Origin: an uncultured delta proteobacterium
GTDB taxonomy: Bacteria; Desulfobacterota; Syntrophia; Syntrophales; UBA2185
NCBI GenBank assembly: GCA_963695875.1
Contig: CAVOID010000009.1
Location: 128,001 to 192,000 of the forward strand
Length of the DNA: 64,000 nucleotides
Direction of reading: 5' to 3'
Below the pieces are notes generated by a model. The model was not told where the DNA came from. It did no database searches and was given only the letters and a program-made list of their open reading frames with translations. The position numbers and the translations under genes are program-made. Below, piece after piece: positions 17,244 through 31,811 of the stretch. Numbering within the stretch: position 1 is the first letter of the stretch; the number at the start of each line of letters is the position of its first letter.

Positions 17244-18092
17244 TCAAGACTTAAGGTAGCTGTGGAGGCCGGGCAGGTAATTGACGCCAAGGTATGTGAA
17301 CAGCACACAGGCAAACCCGATGATGGCCATAAGGGCTATGCGTTTGCCCCGCCACTCTCTCACTAATCGTACATGCAGCATGGTCGCATAGACAAGCCAT
17401 GTAATCAATGACCATGTCTCTTTCGGATCCCAGCTCCAGTAAGACCCCCACGCATAATGGGCCCAGACAGACCCCGTTATAATCCCCAACGTCAAAAGAA
17501 CGAATCCAAGAGCCGTGCTCTGATAGATAAGTTCATCCAGAATGCTCCTTGCCGGCAGAAAGCGAAGCATTGACCCTGAGCGACTTCCCGCATGCCGATC
17601 AAGATTCTTTATAAAATACATGATACCAAGGCCGCATGCGATGGCAAAAGCGGCATATCCCATGAAACAGGTCATTACATGGCTTGTAAGCCAGTTACTC
17701 TGGAGCGCCGGGATCAGTGGCTGTATCCGGCTGTTTATATTGGGTGACAGGGAAGCAAAGGCCATGGCAAGAAATGCAACGGGAACAACAAATGTGCCCA
17801 GGCTTTTGTTTTTGATCCGCCACTCGAAAACCAGATAGAGCAGGACAATGGACCATGCAAAAAAAATCAAAGATTCATAGAAATTGGACAGGGGTGCATG
17901 ACCGATTCCCATTCTGTAGGATTCCATCCATCGAAGGATGAGTGCCACTGTCTGTGCCGTAAGACCAACAAAAGCTGTAATTGACGCCAGACGGCCCCAG
18001 ATATCCTCACCCCTGATCATCCTGATGAAGTATAAAACAAAGGCTGCAAGATAGATGAAGGTAACCCAGCTTAGAATGGCGGTATTGATCAT
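17244..18092 (-). CDS. ccsA: Cytochrome c biogenesis heme-attachment protein CcsA/ResC (system II)
   Basis: WAHYAWGSYWSWDPKETW WWD motif, LQSNWLTSHV, GLHSY. Confidence 0.95.
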   Translation of the reverse strand: MINTAILSWVTFIYLAAFVLYFIRMIRGEDIWGRLASITAFVGLTAQTVALILRWMESYRMGIGHAPLSNFYESLIFFAWSIVLLYLVFEWRIKNKSLGTFVVPVAFLAMAFASLSPNINSRIQPLIPALQSNWLTSHVMTCFMGYAAFAIACGLGIMYFIKNLDRHAGSRSGSMLRFLPARSILDELIYQSTALGFVLLTLGIITGSVWAHYAWGSYWSWDPKETWSLITWLVYATMLHVRLVREWRGKRIALMAIIGFACVLFTYLGVNYLPGLHSYLKS

Positions 18093-19533
18093 GAATTCGA
18101 CACTCCTGAATTTTGTATCTCTTCAATCAGGCTTGTTATTTCCCGTTCAAGACCGACCGGATCTTTATTGGTTTTACCGGCGATGCTGATTCGCGTGTTT
18201 GGTCCCTGTCTGTCGATCCTGATCCAAACCTGCCGGTGAGCATAAAAAAAGACAGTCATAAAACCGATAACAAGAAGGAAAGAACCGGCAATAACAACAG
18301 GGACACCCGGGTCCCGTGTTACCTGCAACCCCGTATAATATTTCGTTTGAATCATGGCAAGGGAAAAGACATACGGGGCAAAAATGCCCGGATTAAATAT
18401 CGGTACACGGTCTATGAGGCCGGGATTTTCCTCTATGATCTGTTCGATGTTCTGGAAAACCCATAATTGGAATTTTCCCTTTGCCGACTTTATATCGATC
18501 TTAACCGCGGGTCCGATCCGCATGAAGTTTTCCTCCATGCGGATAATCTTCGCTTTTCCATCCTTTCCCGGCAGATCAAACTCTGTACCAATACGAACCC
18601 TGATTACATGCGCCTTTTCGCGTCCTTTATCGGATGCCGATGACCGCATCACCCGATGGCATCGTACCGAAATTTGCCTGATAAAACCGGATTCCTTCAA
18701 TGGTTGCGGGATGATTGACAAATATCGGCCCCTGCTGAAGAATACTGCCGTTCCGTGAAAAAGTGAGGTCCGAACGATACATCTTTCGGCGTGCCATCCT
18801 CATAATAGTCTATGGAAAAGCGATCACAGCGTACGGCAAAATCAAGTTTTTTAAAACCCGTTTCTCCCTTGAGCTGAACTTTATCTGCCGAGTCCCCTTC
18901 AGCAATCTCAACGTAGGCATCAAAACCGAAGAGGAACCCGATGATTATGCCTGTCAGAATAATCAGAACACTGAAATGAACCAGATAGACCCCGAAATAC
19001 GAAAAATTTCCCTTTTCGCCGGTTATGAAGGTGCCTTCTTCCGTATCCTCTCTACATATACCTTTATATTTCTTCTTCAAAAGATTCTGGAGTCTCAGTG
19101 CCTCCTCATTGCGAGGTTTTTCGACGAGAATGACCCGGTCTGAAGGCAGGTCCCTGAAAATCTCTGTTTCATCGGGGACGGATGTTTTGCGGGAAAGCTT
19201 CCAGGAAGCAGGCAGTCGATTCGCCGAACAGACAATCAGATTAACGGAAAGGAGTATCATGAGGCTGACAAACCACGTGGAATGGAAAATATTGAACAAT
19301 TGCAGCTCCCGAAAAACGGCGACCATACCGGGACTGAGATGGCTGGTAAATATATCAGCCTCCTGCTGAGGTATTATGGTGCCTAAAATAGAGGCAATGG
19401 ATATGATGATTAACAGTACAATTGTCAGTTTTACGGAGGATAAAAGAGACCGGAAACTTATTTTTCGTCTTCGCATTACTGAATTCCTCGCCTGCATTTG
19501 CTCCCGTATTAATCTGTTGCCGTGTTCATTCAA
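18089..19533 (-). pseudogene. resB: ResB/CcsB cytochrome c biogenesis protein with two +1 frameshifts (probably sequencing errors)
   Basis: LSSVKLTI..GTIIPQ, VHFSVL, middle frame YRSDL..VNHP..FYQ, YTGLQVTRDPG; shifts near 18785 and 18630. Confidence 0.88.
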
Positions 19534-20753: not shown

Positions 20754-20782
20754 GCAGAAGCGCCGGGATATGGCGCTTCTGC
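20754..20782. terminator. Hairpin between convergent genes
   Basis: GCAGAAGCGCC-N7-GGCGCTTCTGC perfect 11-bp stem. Confidence 0.65.
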
Positions 20783-21729: not shown

Positions 21730-22947
21730 TTAAAACAAAACATTCAGTACACGATCTATCTCCTTCAATACGCCCAGGACATCCGCGGCCTCACCCGGTT
21801 TCAGTATTTCAGGATTGATCGCCGATAACAGAACCTGCACCGCATCAACTGCTTTTCTCAGATTTAGGTCGTCGTCCATATGATCGCCAAACGCCTTCCT
21901 GAGGCGAATTGCCATCTTGAAGCGGGCCTGTGGCTCACCGCGTGCTCTGCCCCTGATATTGTTTGCCAGGCGCTTGAGCTCTTTAAGCCCTGCCGCAGCC
22001 TTCCTCATATTCTTTTCCGAATAATTGATCCTTTCTCGGTAATGATTGCAGATCAGGAAAAACCTGATTTCGGAAGGACTGTATCCCTCTTTGATTAATG
22101 TATCCGTATAGTAGATATTACCTTTGCTTTTGGACATCTTCCGGCCATTTACAAACAGATGTTCACAATGGAGCCAGAACCTGGCCATGGGATAAGACCT
22201 GACTGATTCGAGGATGGCGCGCGTGTAGTCGTGATGGCGCACCAGGTTATCGATTCCACCGCAATAGATAGAAAGGGGCTCATGGAAATACCGGTTGACC
22301 ATGCCTGCATCCTGAATATTCCATGCGGGCCTGCCCGCCCCTATTTTTGTATCCCAGTAATCCCTTTCTCCGACTTTGCGGCCGTGCCAGAGAATAAAAT
22401 CACCAAGATTCCAGCGCATACCCGGATAGGTATCTTTGCTGAAGCGTTTTTTTGTTTTTGGCCATCGCGACATGTCGAGACCGTAGATTTTTCCGAAGCC
22501 GGAAAATTTTAACGGATCGAAATATACATCACCTTTATGCCAGTATGCCACTCCGCGAGCGATCAGTTGTTCTATGATGCCGACTGCCTCATCCACTGCC
22601 TGGGAGGCGCGGGGAAGGTAGTCCGGTCTTTTCATCTTCAATAGGAACGCCTCATCAAGAAAAGATCTAATATTAACTTCTGTCAGGCGTTTTACCGTCT
22701 TATGCCTTTTTACAGCTTCGATTACAGCCTTGTCCTCGATATCGGTAAAATTCATGCCGCGCTTCACCTTGTAGCCGGAAAATTCCAGATATTTCACCAG
22801 GACATCTTCAAACAAAAAAGTCCGGAAATTGCCGATATGTGCCTTCTGGTAGACCGAAGGGCCGCAGGTGAATATGTTCACGATATTAGGATTGACAGGC
22901 CTGAATGCCTGCAATCGTTTCCCCATTGAATTGTAAAGGCGAAGCAT
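21730..22947 (-). CDS. Cysteine--tRNA ligase-like paralog, divergent and C-terminally short
   Basis: TCGPSVY..HIGN and KMSKS retained; WNIQD and HHDYT replace WHIEC and HHENE. Confidence 0.85.
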   Translation of the reverse strand: MLRLYNSMGKRLQAFRPVNPNIVNIFTCGPSVYQKAHIGNFRTFLFEDVLVKYLEFSGYKVKRGMNFTDIEDKAVIEAVKRHKTVKRLTEVNIRSFLDEAFLLKMKRPDYLPRASQAVDEAVGIIEQLIARGVAYWHKGDVYFDPLKFSGFGKIYGLDMSRWPKTKKRFSKDTYPGMRWNLGDFILWHGRKVGERDYWDTKIGAGRPAWNIQDAGMVNRYFHEPLSIYCGGIDNLVRHHDYTRAILESVRSYPMARFWLHCEHLFVNGRKMSKSKGNIYYTDTLIKEGYSPSEIRFFLICNHYRERINYSEKNMRKAAAGLKELKRLANNIRGRARGEPQARFKMAIRLRKAFGDHMDDDLNLRKAVDAVQVLLSAINPEILKPGEAADVLGVLKEIDRVLNVLF

Positions 22948-22962
22948 TTATCCTTGTCTCCT

Positions 22963-24515: not shown

Positions 24516-25503
24516 CTATGCTAATGAATTAGTCAGATATTTCTGGAGGGTTTTATAGCTCTCAATATCAGTATCCACTAAAGAAGCTCCTATGTATGTC
24601 TCACTATTGGAACTGAGCACATATTGGGGCAGGCATTCAATCGTGACCGGCATTTTACTGTTGGGCAATGTGAAGGTAATCGAAATATTGCATGTCATTC
24701 CTGTCTTCCCCTGTCTCGAACTTATGAGCACCAGGTATTGAAATCTGTACGCCGCCGAGAGAGACGTCCAATACCAGCCCGGGTTGTAATGATGCTTTGT
24801 CACCATCTGATGTGCTGACTAAAGCAGAGAAAGAAACCTTTTTCCTCGGATAATGTCGTTTTTCCTCTTCTACCTTTTTTTTATAAAAATCGGGATACAG
24901 CTGTTTTGCGCAACCCGGACATATGCTGTGCGTAAAATTCAGGTCGGAATGATCTTTCAGATACGACTCAACCTGCATCCAGTATCCATCATCAGATCGT
25001 ATATTCTTGCAGTTGGCACAAATCGGAAGCAGCCCCCTTAACGTTTTTACATTTTCCAGCGCTTCTTTCAGCTCTTTTATCAATCTTTCCTTCTCTGTCA
25101 AATTGTGAAAACGCTCAATGGAATATTTTAAAGAACGCAAAAGCAGCATGCTGTTTATCTGATTTTTATTTAAATAGTCCTGAACACCACCCTGCAAGGC
25201 CTTTATAGCGACATTCTCATCATCAAGACCTGTCAAGACAATAATTGGCGTATTCTTTTCCTGCTCCACCATTTTTTTGACAGTGTCCAGGCCGTTGCTG
25301 TCGGGAAGCGACAAGTCCAGTAAAATTACATCCACTTTATTTTCAGCCAGATATTTCAAAGCATTTTCACATGTTTCCTTGTGTATTAATTCAAGATGGA
25401 CATCACCCGCATCTTTTATGACGTCCTCATAAATCATTCCTTTTATCAAAGCAGTATCGTTCTTATTATCCTCAACGAGAAGTATTTTTAATATTTTGGA
25501 CAT
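24516..25503 (-). pseudogene. Response regulator (REC, Cys motif, PilZ) with a +1 frameshift near 24703
   Basis: LLVED, LLDLSLPD, LPICANCK..THSICPGC, RHYPR..DVSLGG; PilZ tail in the 24516-24806 frame. Confidence 0.82.
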
Positions 25504-25714
25504 GTTACTCTCCTTTTTGCGGCGTAACGACAATATCCAACTTCCGCCTCGAAATTTCGATCTGCAAACATATTATAATATTGTATACATAAAACATAAA
25601 ATAACTAACAATCGGGATTTTCCTGATTTATAGCTTCGAAAACCATTATAATGAACCTCTAAAATCCCGATTGATGAGAGTGCATAAACCGATATTGTTA
25701 TACATAAATTGTAC

Positions 25715-28829: not shown

Positions 28830-29789
28830 TTACTTAACATTTTTCCCCTTCAAGACCAGTTCCGGTTTTTTCAGAAATACTTCCGTATCAGGCGGCACCG
28901 AATCGGTAATCCAGACATTCCCGCCGATTACCGAACGGGCTCCGATTACAGTCTTCCCGCCCAGCACAGTGGCATTTGCATAAATGATGACGTCATCTTC
29001 AATGGTAGGATGACGTTTTTGATTTCTTAGAGATTCCACTTCCTCACGGCTGAGCGAGAGGGCTCCCAGCGTTACACCCTGATAGAGCCTGACGCGCTTG
29101 CCGATAATGGTCGTCTCGCCAATTACTACGCCTGTACCATGGTCGATAAAGAAGCGTTCTCCGATCCGGGCGCCGGGGTGAATATCTATCCCCGTTTTGC
29201 CATGGGCGTATTCCGTCATGATACGCGGTATCAGGGGGATGCCGTGTTGATGCAACTGGTTTGCAATGCGATACACCGTGATAGCGAAAAGTCCCGGATA
29301 ACTGAAGATGATTTCGTCGAAGCTTTTGGCCGCCGGATCTCCTTCATGTGCCGCCTGGATATCCGAAGCAAGCAGAACACGTAATTGAGCCATGCCGCGT
29401 AAAAAATCGATGGCAGCCTGCTGGCCCCGTTCATCGCAGTTTGTACAGGGCTGATTGTGGCGTATGCAGTCATGCCGTATCGCCAGCATAAGCTGTTCGG
29501 AGAGGGCTTCAAAAAGACTGGTCACTTCCTGACCGAAATAGTAGCCGACATTCATCTGATCCAGACGTGTACGGATGAAATAACCGGGATAAAGGATGCG
29601 GCTTGCCGTGTGCAGGATATCGATTACAGCCTCGCGGGAGGGAATCGGTTCCGGGCCCACGTGGTCAAAACAATCATTACGGCCGCAGGATAATACAAGC
29701 TCATCAACAACAGCAGGGATTTCTTCGCGAAAGTTCCGGGTGATGTCAATATCAGTCCTGCATTGGTCCATTTTTGATTTGTCATCCAC
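28830..29789 (-). CDS. cysE: Serine O-acetyltransferase
   Basis: GDPAA, GIDIHPGA, FFIDHGTG, KRHPT; GGAGGTG RBS before GTG. Confidence 0.92.
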   Translation of the reverse strand: MDDKSKMDQCRTDIDITRNFREEIPAVVDELVLSCGRNDCFDHVGPEPIPSREAVIDILHTASRILYPGYFIRTRLDQMNVGYYFGQEVTSLFEALSEQLMLAIRHDCIRHNQPCTNCDERGQQAAIDFLRGMAQLRVLLASDIQAAHEGDPAAKSFDEIIFSYPGLFAITVYRIANQLHQHGIPLIPRIMTEYAHGKTGIDIHPGARIGERFFIDHGTGVVIGETTIIGKRVRLYQGVTLGALSLSREEVESLRNQKRHPTIEDDVIIYANATVLGGKTVIGARSVIGGNVWITDSVPPDTEVFLKKPELVLKGKNVK

Positions 29790-29805
29790 GTTTATTTCAC
29801 CTCCT

Positions 29806-30987
29806 TTACTGGACTGTACATGCCTGATCGCCCAAGTTCCAGTAGGGGGACAAGCCGCGCAACTTTTCAATAATTGACGGTAGCTTCTCAACGACGAAGT
29901 TTATTTCCTCCTCGGTGTTGTAGATGCTCAGGCTGAACCTGATAGACCCGTGGGCCATGGTGAATGGAACACCCATGGCACGAAGCACATGGGAAGGCTG
30001 CAGAGACCCTGAGGTACAAGCTGAACCTGAGGATGCACAGATGCCGAACTCGTCCATCAGAAGGAGGATGGCTTCACCTTCGACAAATTCAAAGCTGATG
30101 TTCGTTGTATTGGGAAGCCGGTATAATCGCGTTCCATTTACGCGGCTATTTGGAATACGCGCCAGGAGCTCTGTTTCAAGCTTATCCCGCAATTTTTTCA
30201 CAGTGGTGTTCTCTGTTTCCATGTTGCGCGCCGCCAGTTCGCAGGCCTTTCCCAGCCCGATGATGCTGGGTGTGTTCTCCGTACCGCCCCGGCGCTCCTT
30301 CTCCTGGTGCCCCCCGATCAGGAAAGGTGAGAACTTCGTACCCTTACGTACATACAGGACACCTATACCCTTTGGCGCATGAAGCTTGTGTCCGGATATG
30401 GAGAGCATATCAATGACATTTGTCTTCATATTTATCGGGATCTTTCCAACTGCCTGGACAGCATCCGTATGAAACAGAACGCCCCTTTCGTGAGCAAGCT
30501 CTGCCGCCTTTTCCACGGGGAACAAGGCCCCGGTTTCGTTGTTGGCCCACATGAGGCTGACAACAGCAGTATCCGGTGTCAGACTTCTTTCGAACTGATT
30601 CATATCCAGGAGGCCGTCTTTATCTACCGGCAGTTCCGTTACGCGATATCCCTGCCTCGACAGATGAGCACAAAGTGACTTAATGGCGGGATGCTCAACC
30701 CTGCTTGTCAAAATATGACGCTTGTCGGGATGAGTTGCCAGGGCCGACCGGATTGCGGCATTGTCACTTTCCGTCCCGCAACTGGTGAAGATGATTTCAT
30801 CAGACGTGGCCCCGATGAGCGCTGCTGCCTGTCCGCGGGCCTCGCGTATCTTTCGTGCAACCTGCCCTCCAAAGGAATGCATGCTGGACGGATTTCCATA
30901 AAGAATGCGGAAGTAGGGAAGCATGGCATCCATAACCTCTGCGGCAACCTGGGAAGTCGCATTGTTATCCAGATAAATAGTTGTCAT
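29806..30987 (-). CDS. nifS: Cysteine desulfurase NifS
   Basis: YLDNNATS, HTDAVQ, SGHKLH, SSGSACTS. Confidence 0.95.
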   Translation of the reverse strand: MTTIYLDNNATSQVAAEVMDAMLPYFRILYGNPSSMHSFGGQVARKIREARGQAAALIGATSDEIIFTSCGTESDNAAIRSALATHPDKRHILTSRVEHPAIKSLCAHLSRQGYRVTELPVDKDGLLDMNQFERSLTPDTAVVSLMWANNETGALFPVEKAAELAHERGVLFHTDAVQAVGKIPINMKTNVIDMLSISGHKLHAPKGIGVLYVRKGTKFSPFLIGGHQEKERRGGTENTPSIIGLGKACELAARNMETENTTVKKLRDKLETELLARIPNSRVNGTRLYRLPNTTNISFEFVEGEAILLLMDEFGICASSGSACTSGSLQPSHVLRAMGVPFTMAHGSIRFSLSIYNTEEEINFVVEKLPSIIEKLRGLSPYWNLGDQACTVQ

Positions 30988-31811
30988 GGTGTCACCTCTT
31001 CAATTACAAGCTCAGGCGACACGAGATCCCGGAGCTTTAATTCAACAAAATGCTTCAGCGTGATATCGGCCGCTTTGCAGGCAGCACAGGCGCCCCGTGT
31101 AGCAACAAGGACGCGATTGCCGATTACATCGATGAGCTCGATATCGCCCCCGTCGTTCTTCAAGGATGGCCTGATTTCACGTTCGATGGTTTCCTCGATC
31201 ATTTTTATCTTCTGAATGTTGGACAGCTTCGGCTTGACGACCGGTGCAGTAGCGCCGGCCCGGACCCTCTCGATAATCTCCCTGATGGCGTCATGACAAC
31301 CTCCGCAGCCGCCGCCGGCCTTGGTGTAGTTCGTCACCTCTTCAACCGTGGCAAGGTTATTCTCCCTGACTGCCTGCTCAATTTCTTGTTCCGTGACGCC
31401 AAAGCACTCGCATATAATCTTCGCTTCCGGTTCTTTTGAAGGGCCGCCCCGATAATATTCTATAGCCTTTTCCAGGGCCTGCTTTCCCATAACGGAACAG
31501 TGCATCTTCTCCTGGGGTAGGCCGCCCAGGTAAGCCGCGATATCCTGGTTTGTCACTTTCATGGCCTCTTCCAGAGACAGCCCCTTAACCATCTCGGTCA
31601 GTGCAGAGGAGGTCGCGATCGCGCTGGCACAGCCAAAGGTTTTGAATTTGACATCTTTGATCTTCTTATTCTCATCTAATTTAAATGAAAGTTTGAGGGC
31701 ATCTCCGCAGGCAATGGAACCTACCTCAGCCACTCCATCCGGATTCTCGACTTCCCCGACGTTACGGGGATTAAGGAAGTGCTCCTTGACTTTATCCGTA
31801 TATTCCCACAT
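30984..31811 (-). CDS. nifU: Fe-S scaffold NifU (three-domain)
   Basis: CGD, FGC, KMHCS; CECF..GCGGC; DGGD..GACAAC. Confidence 0.95.
   Translation of the reverse strand: MWEYTDKVKEHFLNPRNVGEVENPDGVAEVGSIACGDALKLSFKLDENKKIKDVKFKTFGCASAIATSSALTEMVKGLSLEEAMKVTNQDIAAYLGGLPQEKMHCSVMGKQALEKAIEYYRGGPSKEPEAKIICECFGVTEQEIEQAVRENNLATVEEVTNYTKAGGGCGGCHDAIREIIERVRAGATAPVVKPKLSNIQKIKMIEETIEREIRPSLKNDGGDIELIDVIGNRVLVATRGACAACKAADITLKHFVELKLRDLVSPELVIEEVTP

Follow-up and report, generated by a model that had tools for sequence, protein, structure and literature searches.

A conserved family of cysteinyl-tRNA synthetase-derived ligases with a rebuilt amino-acid pocket and no anticodon-binding domain

What does a cysteinyl-tRNA synthetase (CysRS) do once it has lost its anticodon reader and the pocket that holds its amino acid has been rebuilt? 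Paralogs of aminoacyl-tRNA synthetases that lack the tRNA-reading parts are known for unexpected chemistry: MshC serves mycothiol, GluQRS tRNA modification, PoxA the factor EF-P and CysRS* the recoding of UGA. The question is raised here by a 405-residue CysRS-derived protein, hereafter the paralog, encoded in a 64,000-nucleotide stretch of DNA (the window) from an uncultured delta proteobacterium of the Syntrophales (assembly GCA_963695875.1, contig CAVOID010000009.1). We show that the paralog belongs to a conserved and undescribed family of class-I ligases of ~405 aa that derive from CysRS and have no anticodon-binding domain. We are confident that it is a selected, catalytically equipped ligase and not the CysRS of its cell. 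Because the anticodon reader has been lost and the amino-acid pocket rebuilt, its job, judged from these sequence features, is almost certainly something other than ordinary protein synthesis.

The paralog matches Pfam tRNA-synt_1e at 243.5 bits and the cysS model TIGR00435 at 301.3 bits, where the cut-off is 340. Since the cysS match covers model positions 1–400 of 466, the C-terminal anticodon-binding part is missing. Canonical rows of our tree alignment run on for ~60–90 residues past residue 405, where the paralog stops with the sequence ...LNVLF, and a DALR_2 match in the preceding helices (residues 352–402) is weak, at 17 bits and under its cut-off. An earlier, sequence-only reading of the locus had placed the end of the protein ahead of the anticodon-binding domain and had listed C28, HIGN, KMSKS, RPAWNIQD, SIYCGG and VRHHDYT as its motifs; all of this was borne out when the motifs were re-read at their coordinates (Table 1) and aligned. 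The MshC model TIGR03447 gives 169.8 bits against a cut-off of 485.1, and no NCBIfam model accepts the protein at its cut-off. AlphaFold2, run on an alignment of 46 rows, gives a confident model (pLDDT 94.1), and Foldseek places it at TMq 0.88 to CysRS 8qhp and 1u0b and at TMq 0.82 to MshC 3c8z (414 columns). The likeness to the MshC architecture is real in length, in fold and in the missing domain. A search for fusions returned no family member of at least 710 aa, its sole match being a 36%-identical protein from outside the family.

The zinc ligands of CysRS are said to have been assigned by Newberry and co-workers in 2002 as C28, C209, H234 and E238. The two cysteines C28 and C209 are described as part of the zinc site (PMC5660078). 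We aligned the paralog residue by residue with HMMER to the solved CysRS 8qhp and to that of E. coli, 1li5. Opposite RPGWHIEC, DIHGGG and FPHHENE of CysRS it has RPAWNIQD, SIYCGG and VRHHDYT. In E. coli numbering the changes are H206 to N, E208 to Q, C209 to D, P233 to R, E236 to D, N237 to Y and E238 to T, and C28, W205 and H234 are kept. The four-ligand zinc site of CysRS is therefore incomplete in the paralog: C209 has given way to D213 and E238 to T242, and the equivalents of C28 and H234 stand. At position 242, 112 of 121 aligned sequences have T, 8 have S and 1 has N.

Twenty-five tabulated positions are invariant in all 121 sequences: C28, G29, S31, H37, N40, T68, K73, W162, P163, Y174, W179, N180, W209, N210, Q212, D213, Y228, D233, R237, H238, H239, D240, Y241, K270 and K273. 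They include the alpha-amino contacts known from MshC (G29, S31, which stands for Thr, and T68), and the ribose-binding GG.D motif is likewise kept and strictly conserved in the family. Five of the invariant residues, N210, Q212, R237, D240 and Y241, are new to the family. The CP domain has been altered as well. The CP1 motif, with which CysRS reads the acceptor stem's initial base pair (PMC5389517), is swapped in the alignment columns for WPxxKxRF, and the neighbouring segment KDTYPGMRWNLGDFILWH holds a 6-residue insert that the genome's own canonical CysRS does not have.

What does this pattern say about the chemistry? Because HIGN, KMSKS, the alpha-amino contacts and Cys28/Asp213/His238 are all invariant, the enzyme has probably kept the ability to bind ATP, to hold a small L-amino acid at a metal site and to make an aminoacyl-adenylate; cysteine or something closely analogous is the most plausible amino acid. 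That C28, D213 and H238 do not vary suggests a Cys/Asp/His metal site kept with one protein ligand fewer. Since N210, Q212, R237, D240 and Y241 are both new and invariant, either the side chain that is bound or the way it is discriminated has presumably changed. The sequence-only reading had proposed an adenylating ligase for a different substrate. The ATP motifs on which it relied are indeed intact, but the different substrate is conjecture: because the three metal-site residues are all invariant, a Cys/Asp/His site, or even cysteine itself as the substrate, may still be in place. The change to SIYCGG is also genuine in the paralog but not diagnostic of the family. Across the wider family the first residues of this motif are not fixed, and its Cys has a counterpart in CysRS with a canonical pocket too (e.g. 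P0133 and P0141).

Some observations on this pocket reach beyond the family. We considered C229 as a substitute zinc ligand and rejected it, as the position is Ala or Trp in some members and the cysteine is found in canonical-pocket CysRS too. Asp in place of C209 also occurs in other CysRS lineages (P0134, P0155, P0270 and P0265); in P0134 and P0155 it is accompanied, two residues past the HH pair (HHEC), by a new Cys that may be a ligand in a new place. With WNVQC and HHENT, P0154 is a possible intermediate towards the family pocket.

The conservation of WNIQD and HHDY, which the sequence-only reading had asked about, turned out to be complete. A word-indexed protein search found 5560 proteins at E<=0.001 among 8000 candidates scored, and we analysed the best 120 clusters, which are 61–91% identical to the window protein. 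HHDY, KMSKS, FTCGPS and the CP insert are present in 120/120; 117/120 match all four of the regular expressions HxGN, WN[IV]QD, HHDY and KMSKS; and in 100/120 the length is exactly 405 aa. The changed pocket in every one of these clusters, together with the fixed length, rules out unconserved decay as its origin. These sequences come from the Syntrophales, the Thermodesulfovibrionales and metagenome-assembled genomes labelled “Deltaproteobacteria”, under the names “class I tRNA ligase family protein” or “cysteinyl-tRNA synthetase”. More distant members, at 41–49% identity, retain WN[IV]QD and RHHDY[TN] and belong to the Syntrophobacteraceae, the Desulfobacterales, the Methanomicrobiales, Methanomethylovorans and one metagenome-assembled genome labelled Thermococci. 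The family thus extends over Syntrophales, Nitrospirota, other Desulfobacterota and some methanogens, and all of its named members come from metagenome-assembled genomes, none from an isolate. Among the sequencing runs listed by a search, 20 DNA datasets (peat, sediment and wetland metagenomes) and no RNA dataset contain the sequence. Within the phylum, 13 of 401 sampled genomes carry the family, scoring at least 433 bits against its profile, and the other matches listed reach 313 bits at most.

In a quick, unrooted IQ-TREE phylogeny of 64 rows, none of them from MshC or CysRS*, 31 rows group as a single family clade whose stem measures 0.9 changes per column (SH-aLRT 100). P0131, which is short (411 aa) and has the canonical WHIEC pocket, is sister to this clade with a support of 90; other short canonical-pocket forms, among them those of Methanoperedens, branch near the base. 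Archaeal and bacterial members are intermingled in the deep part of the family clade. Text searches of the literature turned up MshC, CysRS*, persulfide synthase and Zur-linked cysS2 and no paper on the family, and the ESM Atlas offered only generic clusters of short CysRS-like proteins and of MshC, with no functional lead.

A few copies are altered. The member at L026:2186-3400 is intact in frame and has G230V, R237C, K270T (TMSKS) and GWP for GRP; it may be inactive. At L103:5601-8255, in a one-contig genome of the same taxonomic family as the window genome, the ligase gene and a MATE-family transporter gene next to it have one frameshift each and five flanking genes are intact; either decay of both genes together or errors in long reads could explain this. 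At L036:4624-7218 an intact MATE gene is followed by a CysRS-like gene split over at least 3 frames.

The paralog is not needed to supply its host with a CysRS. A canonical cysS elsewhere in the genome had been named as something to confirm, and there is one: the window genome (2.86 Mb in 16 contigs, 82.6% complete) has it on contig 16 (C16; 548.9 bits, above cut-off), which rules out the paralog as its only cysS. Canonical cysS is present in 5/5 of the other bacterial carriers, at 563–580 bits. One of the four archaeal carriers has it and the other three have SepRS (397–751 bits), so all 10 family-bearing genomes examined have either canonical cysS or SepRS. CysRS identifies its tRNA most strongly by the anticodon and U73 (PMC9976931), and it is the reader of the anticodon that the family is without.

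The same genome holds a third CysRS-like gene outside the window (L004:802-2897, equal to ~161290-163385 on contig 7 of G000). It has an N-terminal fusion to a cysteine synthase domain of the CysM/CysK type (255 bits to the cysM model), keeps WHLEC, reads PHCENI and KMSRS, and has a C-terminal anticodon-binding part; in the assembly it is split over three frames. As an intact frame of ~760–800 aa the fusion is found in 3/5 other carriers and in many of the genomes sampled from the phylum, and a text search turned up no paper on it.

What could the enzyme do with an aminoacyl-adenylate? By analogy with MshC, we tentatively favour a ligase that forms the adenylate and then passes the amino acid to an acceptor other than tRNA. 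The features that point this way include the MshC architecture, the retention of five of the six contacts known from MshC, the replacement of CP1, neighbouring transporter and stress genes, and the lack of a linked tRNA. An aminoacyl-adenylate would be formed at the Cys/Asp/His metal site, and the activated amino acid would then be moved, as in MshC, to an acceptor seated where the 3ʹ end of tRNA binds, under the rebuilt CP domain with its WPxxKxRF loop and DTYPGxxWNxGDF insert. That acceptor would probably be anionic or associated with the membrane, because the protein carries a large positive charge and its gene neighbours membrane transporters. The product might be exported through the adjacent MATE transporter (CNNM or ABC-2 proteins in other lineages) or used in stress defence.

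To see how far the neighbourhood agrees with such a ligase, we compared 34 family loci, of which one is in the window, 22 were taken from species-representative genomes and 11 belong to the phylum sample. Pfam scans took in all 145 open reading frames (ORFs) within ~4 kb at 22 loci and the 57 nearest of 91 ORFs at 11 loci; as controls we used 20 windows of 10.2 kb (one of 7.0 kb, at a contig end) lying 50–200 kb off in ten of the same genomes, with 185 ORFs. A MATE ortholog (59–84% identity, by tblastn) lies directly upstream on the same strand at 12/34 loci (the window, L015, L016, L017, L018, L020, L023, L024, L025, L036, L103 and L105) and in 0/20 controls. Other transporters are found elsewhere. 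CNNM/CorC is directly upstream in three Syntrophobacteraceae-type loci (L027, L098 and L101), preceded there by a hydrolase-OsmC fusion and an HPF-cold-shock fusion; at L032 an ABC-2 exporter overlaps downstream and a DinB_2 protein upstream; and an MFS protein is nearby in 2 of 34 loci. Taken together, these exporter classes (MATE, CNNM, ABC-2 and MFS) occur at 18/34 loci versus 0/20 controls (one-sided Fisher test, p 2e-5), or versus 2/20 if FtsX-ABC and HlyD are taken as control hits (p 0.0014). Genes for oxidative stress recur as well. A Bcp/AhpC peroxiredoxin overlaps the ligase gene upstream at the archaeal locus L030; Pyr_redox_2, rubrerythrin, superoxide dismutase and the ligase follow one another co-directionally at L104; disulfide-reductase-type flavoproteins are near the ligase at L099 and L102, and rubrerythrin at L020 and L095. 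On a strict list (superoxide dismutase, rubrerythrin, Bcp/AhpC, OsmC, pyridine-nucleotide-disulfide oxidoreductases and DinB_2), such genes are found at 10/34 loci and in 1/20 controls (p 0.03).

Several observations weigh against an MshC-style ligase with its own exporter. The sequence-only reading had suggested a small ligase/export module with MATE, and a MATE ortholog does stand upstream at the 12 loci named, but in one sub-clade only: all of them are among the 19 loci at least 55% identical to the window protein, and none is among the 15 at 49% or less. Because every case falls in that sub-clade, the MATE link represents few independent events. In four carriers without an adjacent MATE gene, a MATE profile found no full-length MATE at ortholog level; its matches were a 139-aa fragment at a contig end (G385; 220 bits), two of ~213 bits and, in one carrier, nothing, so that co-occurrence beyond synteny is unsupported. 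The enrichment for oxidative stress falls to 8/32 versus 1/20 (p 0.06) if the three similar Syntrophobacteraceae-type loci are counted as one, and to 10/34 versus 3/20 (p 0.19) with a lenient control. Since the categories are post hoc, the loci related and the picking of ORFs crude, all of these neighbour statistics are indications only. No conserved acceptor-making genes, such as the glycosyltransferase and deacetylase of the mycothiol pathway, stand beside the ligase in the scanned ORFs. Strong basicity is expected of an RNA-binding protein and unneeded by a small-molecule ligase. Finally, CysRS*, the only other CysRS without an anticodon-binding domain for which a function has been proposed besides MshC, is proposed to charge a tRNA.

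The last two points lead to an explanation that is quite possible and nearly as likely as the MshC-style ligase: aminoacylation of RNA without an anticodon, in which cysteine or an analogue is attached either to a special tRNA through its acceptor arm, as by CysRS*, or to a modified nucleoside, as by GluQRS, and positive charge stands in for the lost anticodon-binding domain. The paralog has an isoelectric point (pI) of 9.77 and a net charge of +24, and the canonical CysRS of the same genome has pI 5.9 and -8; among 713 crude ORFs of 300–550 aa in that genome, 1.7% are at +24 or more. Over the same alignment columns the family median (30 rows) is pI 9.26 and +12, as against pI 6.0 and -8 for 33 other rows, mostly full-length CysRS, and the best 120 clusters have a median pI of 9.52. 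Archaeal members are less basic, at 0 to +11. Most of the other CysRS-like lineages without an anticodon-binding domain in our tree are strongly basic too (+13 to +47), two Methanoperedens short forms being at only +3 and +4, and most full-length CysRS are acidic. To judge by sequence, a partner that is RNA or another polyanion suits this charge no less well than a small molecule does. The Lys/Arg-rich WPKTKKRF occupies the site used by CysRS to read the acceptor stem's first base pair, the paralog still has its SC-fold and helical bundle, and CysRS* offers a precedent for losing the anticodon-binding domain together with a change in CP1 (PMC5389517). The basic pI of some other short lineages may, however, merely mirror basic proteomes, and the surroundings of the gene do not suggest RNA. 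ARAGORN and Rfam searches found no tRNA or RNA family in the window, and one incidental tRNA, 3.6 kb away, in 11 other loci; the 82.6%-complete genome yields only ordinary tRNAs to ARAGORN, with one tRNA-Cys (GCA) and one tRNA-Sec. No SelB-type neighbour is found among the 145 and 57 flanking ORFs, whose single GTP_EFTU match is LepA, and transporter and stress-gene neighbours are unexpected for a translation factor. A variant that we consider unlikely is that the family charges RNA independently of the anticodon and that plain cysteine is not what it attaches. A dedicated tRNA, an ordinary one or some other RNA could then be charged, and the amino acid could be an oxidised or sulfur-modified cysteine analogue, held at the Cys/Asp/His metal site beside the new Arg237 and Tyr241.

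The remaining explanations fare worse. That the paralog is a spare CysRS, such as an oxidation-resistant or zinc-sparing back-up that makes Cys-tRNACys under stress, is improbable. It would account for the retention of C28, W209, H238 and the alpha-amino contacts and for the stress-gene neighbours, Zur-controlled second cysS genes are known in other bacteria (PMC10882993), and in 3/4 archaeal carriers the family member is the sole CysRS-like gene. Those three archaea have SepRS, however, and a spare CysRS should not be without the domain for its strongest identity element (PMC9976931), have its CP1 acceptor motif replaced, score under the cysS cut-off, differ at two of the four zinc ligands and have new residues fixed at seven positions of the pocket; the E. 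coli CysRS mutants C28D and C28/209D mostly lose translation activity (PMC5660078). We saw no cobW or Zur context next to the gene, although Zur boxes were not searched for. The same mutants bring in sulfur chemistry, such as the synthesis of cysteine persulfide reported as a second activity of CysRS, to which we give very little credence here. Mutants of E. coli and mouse CysRS with zinc-site Cys changed to Asp keep persulfide synthase and lose aminoacylation (PMC5660078), the family has C209 to D by nature, and oxidative-stress and cysteine-supply genes are neighbours, nifS and cysE lying 6–8 kb upstream in the window and, at L015, immediately preceding PilZ and MATE. Yet the lysines in KIIK and KMSK were held responsible for the activity, with each single-Lys mutant impaired (PMC5660078), and the pyridoxal phosphate (PLP) lysines K73, K76, K266 and K269 are not all present: K73, K270 and K273 are kept and position 76 may hold L, K, A, E, R or other residues. 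Moreover, ATP chemistry is probably still under selection, because HIGN, KMSKS and GG.D are strictly conserved, and this counts against a persulfide synthase. The least probable explanation is a catalytically dead relic, or a protein that purely binds or regulates. The patchy spread within the phylum would suit it, as would the frameshifted copies at L036 and L103 and the substitutions at L026, but the catalytic signatures are invariant down to 61% identity with the length held, and they persist at 41–49% identity in both bacteria and archaea.

Table 1. Coordinates of the paralog, its sequence motifs and neighbouring genes in the window
Feature	Position	Strand	Description
CysRS-derived paralog, 405 aa	21730..22947	-	Rossmann core, CP domain, SC-fold, helical bundle; anticodon-binding domain absent
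C28, kept metal-site cysteine	22864-22866	-	Aligns with E. coli C28; invariant 121/121
HIGN, residues 37-40, class-I ATP signature	22828-22839	-	H37, N40 invariant 121/121
WPKTKKRF, residues 162-169	22441-22464	-	Lys/Arg-rich CP loop replacing canonical ...AGARV...; W162, P163 invariant 121/121
KDTYPGMRWNLGDFILWH, residues 171-188	22384-22437	-	CP segment specific to the family; Y174, W179, N180 invariant 121/121
GRPAWNIQD, residues 205-213	22309-22335	-	W209, N210, Q212, D213 invariant 121/121
SIYCGG	22255-22272	-	Opposite DIHGGG of CysRS
RHHDYT, residues 237-242	22222-22239	-	R237, H238, H239, D240, Y241 invariant 121/121
KMSKS, residues 270-274	22126-22140	-	K270, K273 invariant 121/121
Spacer between MATE gene and paralog, 15 nt	22948..22962	-	Reads AGGAGACAAGGATAA; Shine-Dalgarno-like AGGAG
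MATE-family efflux transporter, 455 aa	22963..24330	-	Directly upstream of paralog; Pfam MatE 169.7 bits; TIGR00797 234.4 bits, over cut-off
Dienelactone-hydrolase-family protein, 268 aa	20796..21602	-	Downstream of paralog, co-directional; Pfam DLH 168.6 bits
Response-regulator receiver protein	24655..25533	-	Upstream of MATE gene; L103 counterpart also matches PilZ
nifU - nifS - cysE-like acetyltransferase cluster	28830-31811	-	6-9 kb upstream of paralog

In the window itself, the distance between the MATE gene and the paralog is exactly the 15 nt that had been read from the sequence, and no terminator-like site lies between them on the minus strand. A 12-bp hairpin at 20754-20782 comes after the dienelactone-hydrolase gene, whose orthologs (79–80% identity) are downstream of the ligase only in the close relatives L016 and L103. 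The response-regulator gene is conserved only in the same two Syntrophales relatives, with a partial match at L015; there, nifS, cysE, PilZ, MATE and ligase genes are contiguous and co-directional. Further along the minus strand, at 17244-19533, two ORFs that overlap (210 and 278 aa) come ahead of ccsB (TIGR03144, 289.7 bits). The longer one has no NCBIfam match; together the two might be a split ResB-type gene for cytochrome c biogenesis.

Why does the family matter? It is large (more than 120 clusters at 61% identity or above), sharply defined, and found in bacteria and archaea of anoxic peat and sediments. The identity of its substrate and acceptor would reveal either that syntrophs, sulfate reducers and methanogens have a new metabolite or lipid pathway linked to export and stress defence, or that RNA is aminoacylated in a new way. 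Were RNA charged with an amino acid that is not cysteine, this would be an aminoacylation activity not seen before, in strict anaerobes and methanogens. The family is also a natural experiment in rebuilding the filter, based on zinc, by which CysRS selects cysteine.

How does the family compare with the systems closest to it? The short canonical-pocket CysRS-like lineages (P0131, P0138 and Methanoperedens L037/L039) resemble it in length (~400–413 aa), in lacking the anticodon-binding domain, in HIGN and, mostly, in being very basic. They differ in keeping WHIEC and, mostly, HHEN(E/V); P0131 reads HHDNEI and so has E236D in common with the family. In Candidatus Methanoperedens (L037-L040 and L043) we observed a separate form of ~400 aa with WHIEC and HHENV (HHETV in L043), which in one genome scores 407 bits, over the cysS cut-off, and stands beside a full-length cysS.

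Canonical CysRS (TIGR00435; 8qhp, 1li5/1u0b) shares with the paralog its fold and 30–32% identity to the solved structures, KMSKS, a HIGN-type motif (HIGN in many canonical CysRS), the C28, W205 and H234 equivalents, the alpha-amino contacts and the CP, SC-fold and helical-bundle parts. Setting the family apart are the absent anticodon-binding domain, the substitutions C209 to D, E238 to T, S or N, H206N, E208Q, P233R, E236D and N237Y, the replaced CP1, the 6-residue CP insert, a pI of 9.8 versus ~6 and coexistence with a true cysS. CysRS* of the Desulfobacterales (Mukai et al., NAR 2017; PMC5389517), compared here by its description, is in general terms likewise a second CysRS without an anticodon-binding domain and with an altered CP1, in Deltaproteobacteria that have a normal CysRS. 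Its gene, cysS*, is described as lying downstream of selC*-selB* and is tied to tRNACys(UCA), whereas no selB-like or tRNA neighbour appears among the ORFs scanned at the 34 family loci, and its CP1 is described as PTVS where the family has WPxxKxRF.

MshC, the cysteine:GlcN-Ins ligase (TIGR03447; 3c8z, 8hfm), differs in several respects. The paralog scores 125.5 bits to the 3c8z sequence and 225.8 to CysRS 8qhp, a placement that rests on scores; the family's hosts are strict anaerobes and methanogens, not Actinobacteria; and no mycothiol genes (MshA/B/D) are conserved beside the ligase in the scanned ORFs, no genome-wide search having been made. Nonetheless, MshC is an adenylate-forming enzyme derived from CysRS, of ~410 aa and with the same set of domains, again without the anticodon-binding domain. 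It uses the zinc triad C43/C231/H256 and the alpha-amino contacts G44/T46/T83 (PMC9736012). Five of these six have equivalents in the paralog (C28, H238, G29, S31 and T68), and the sixth, C231, corresponds to Asp213.

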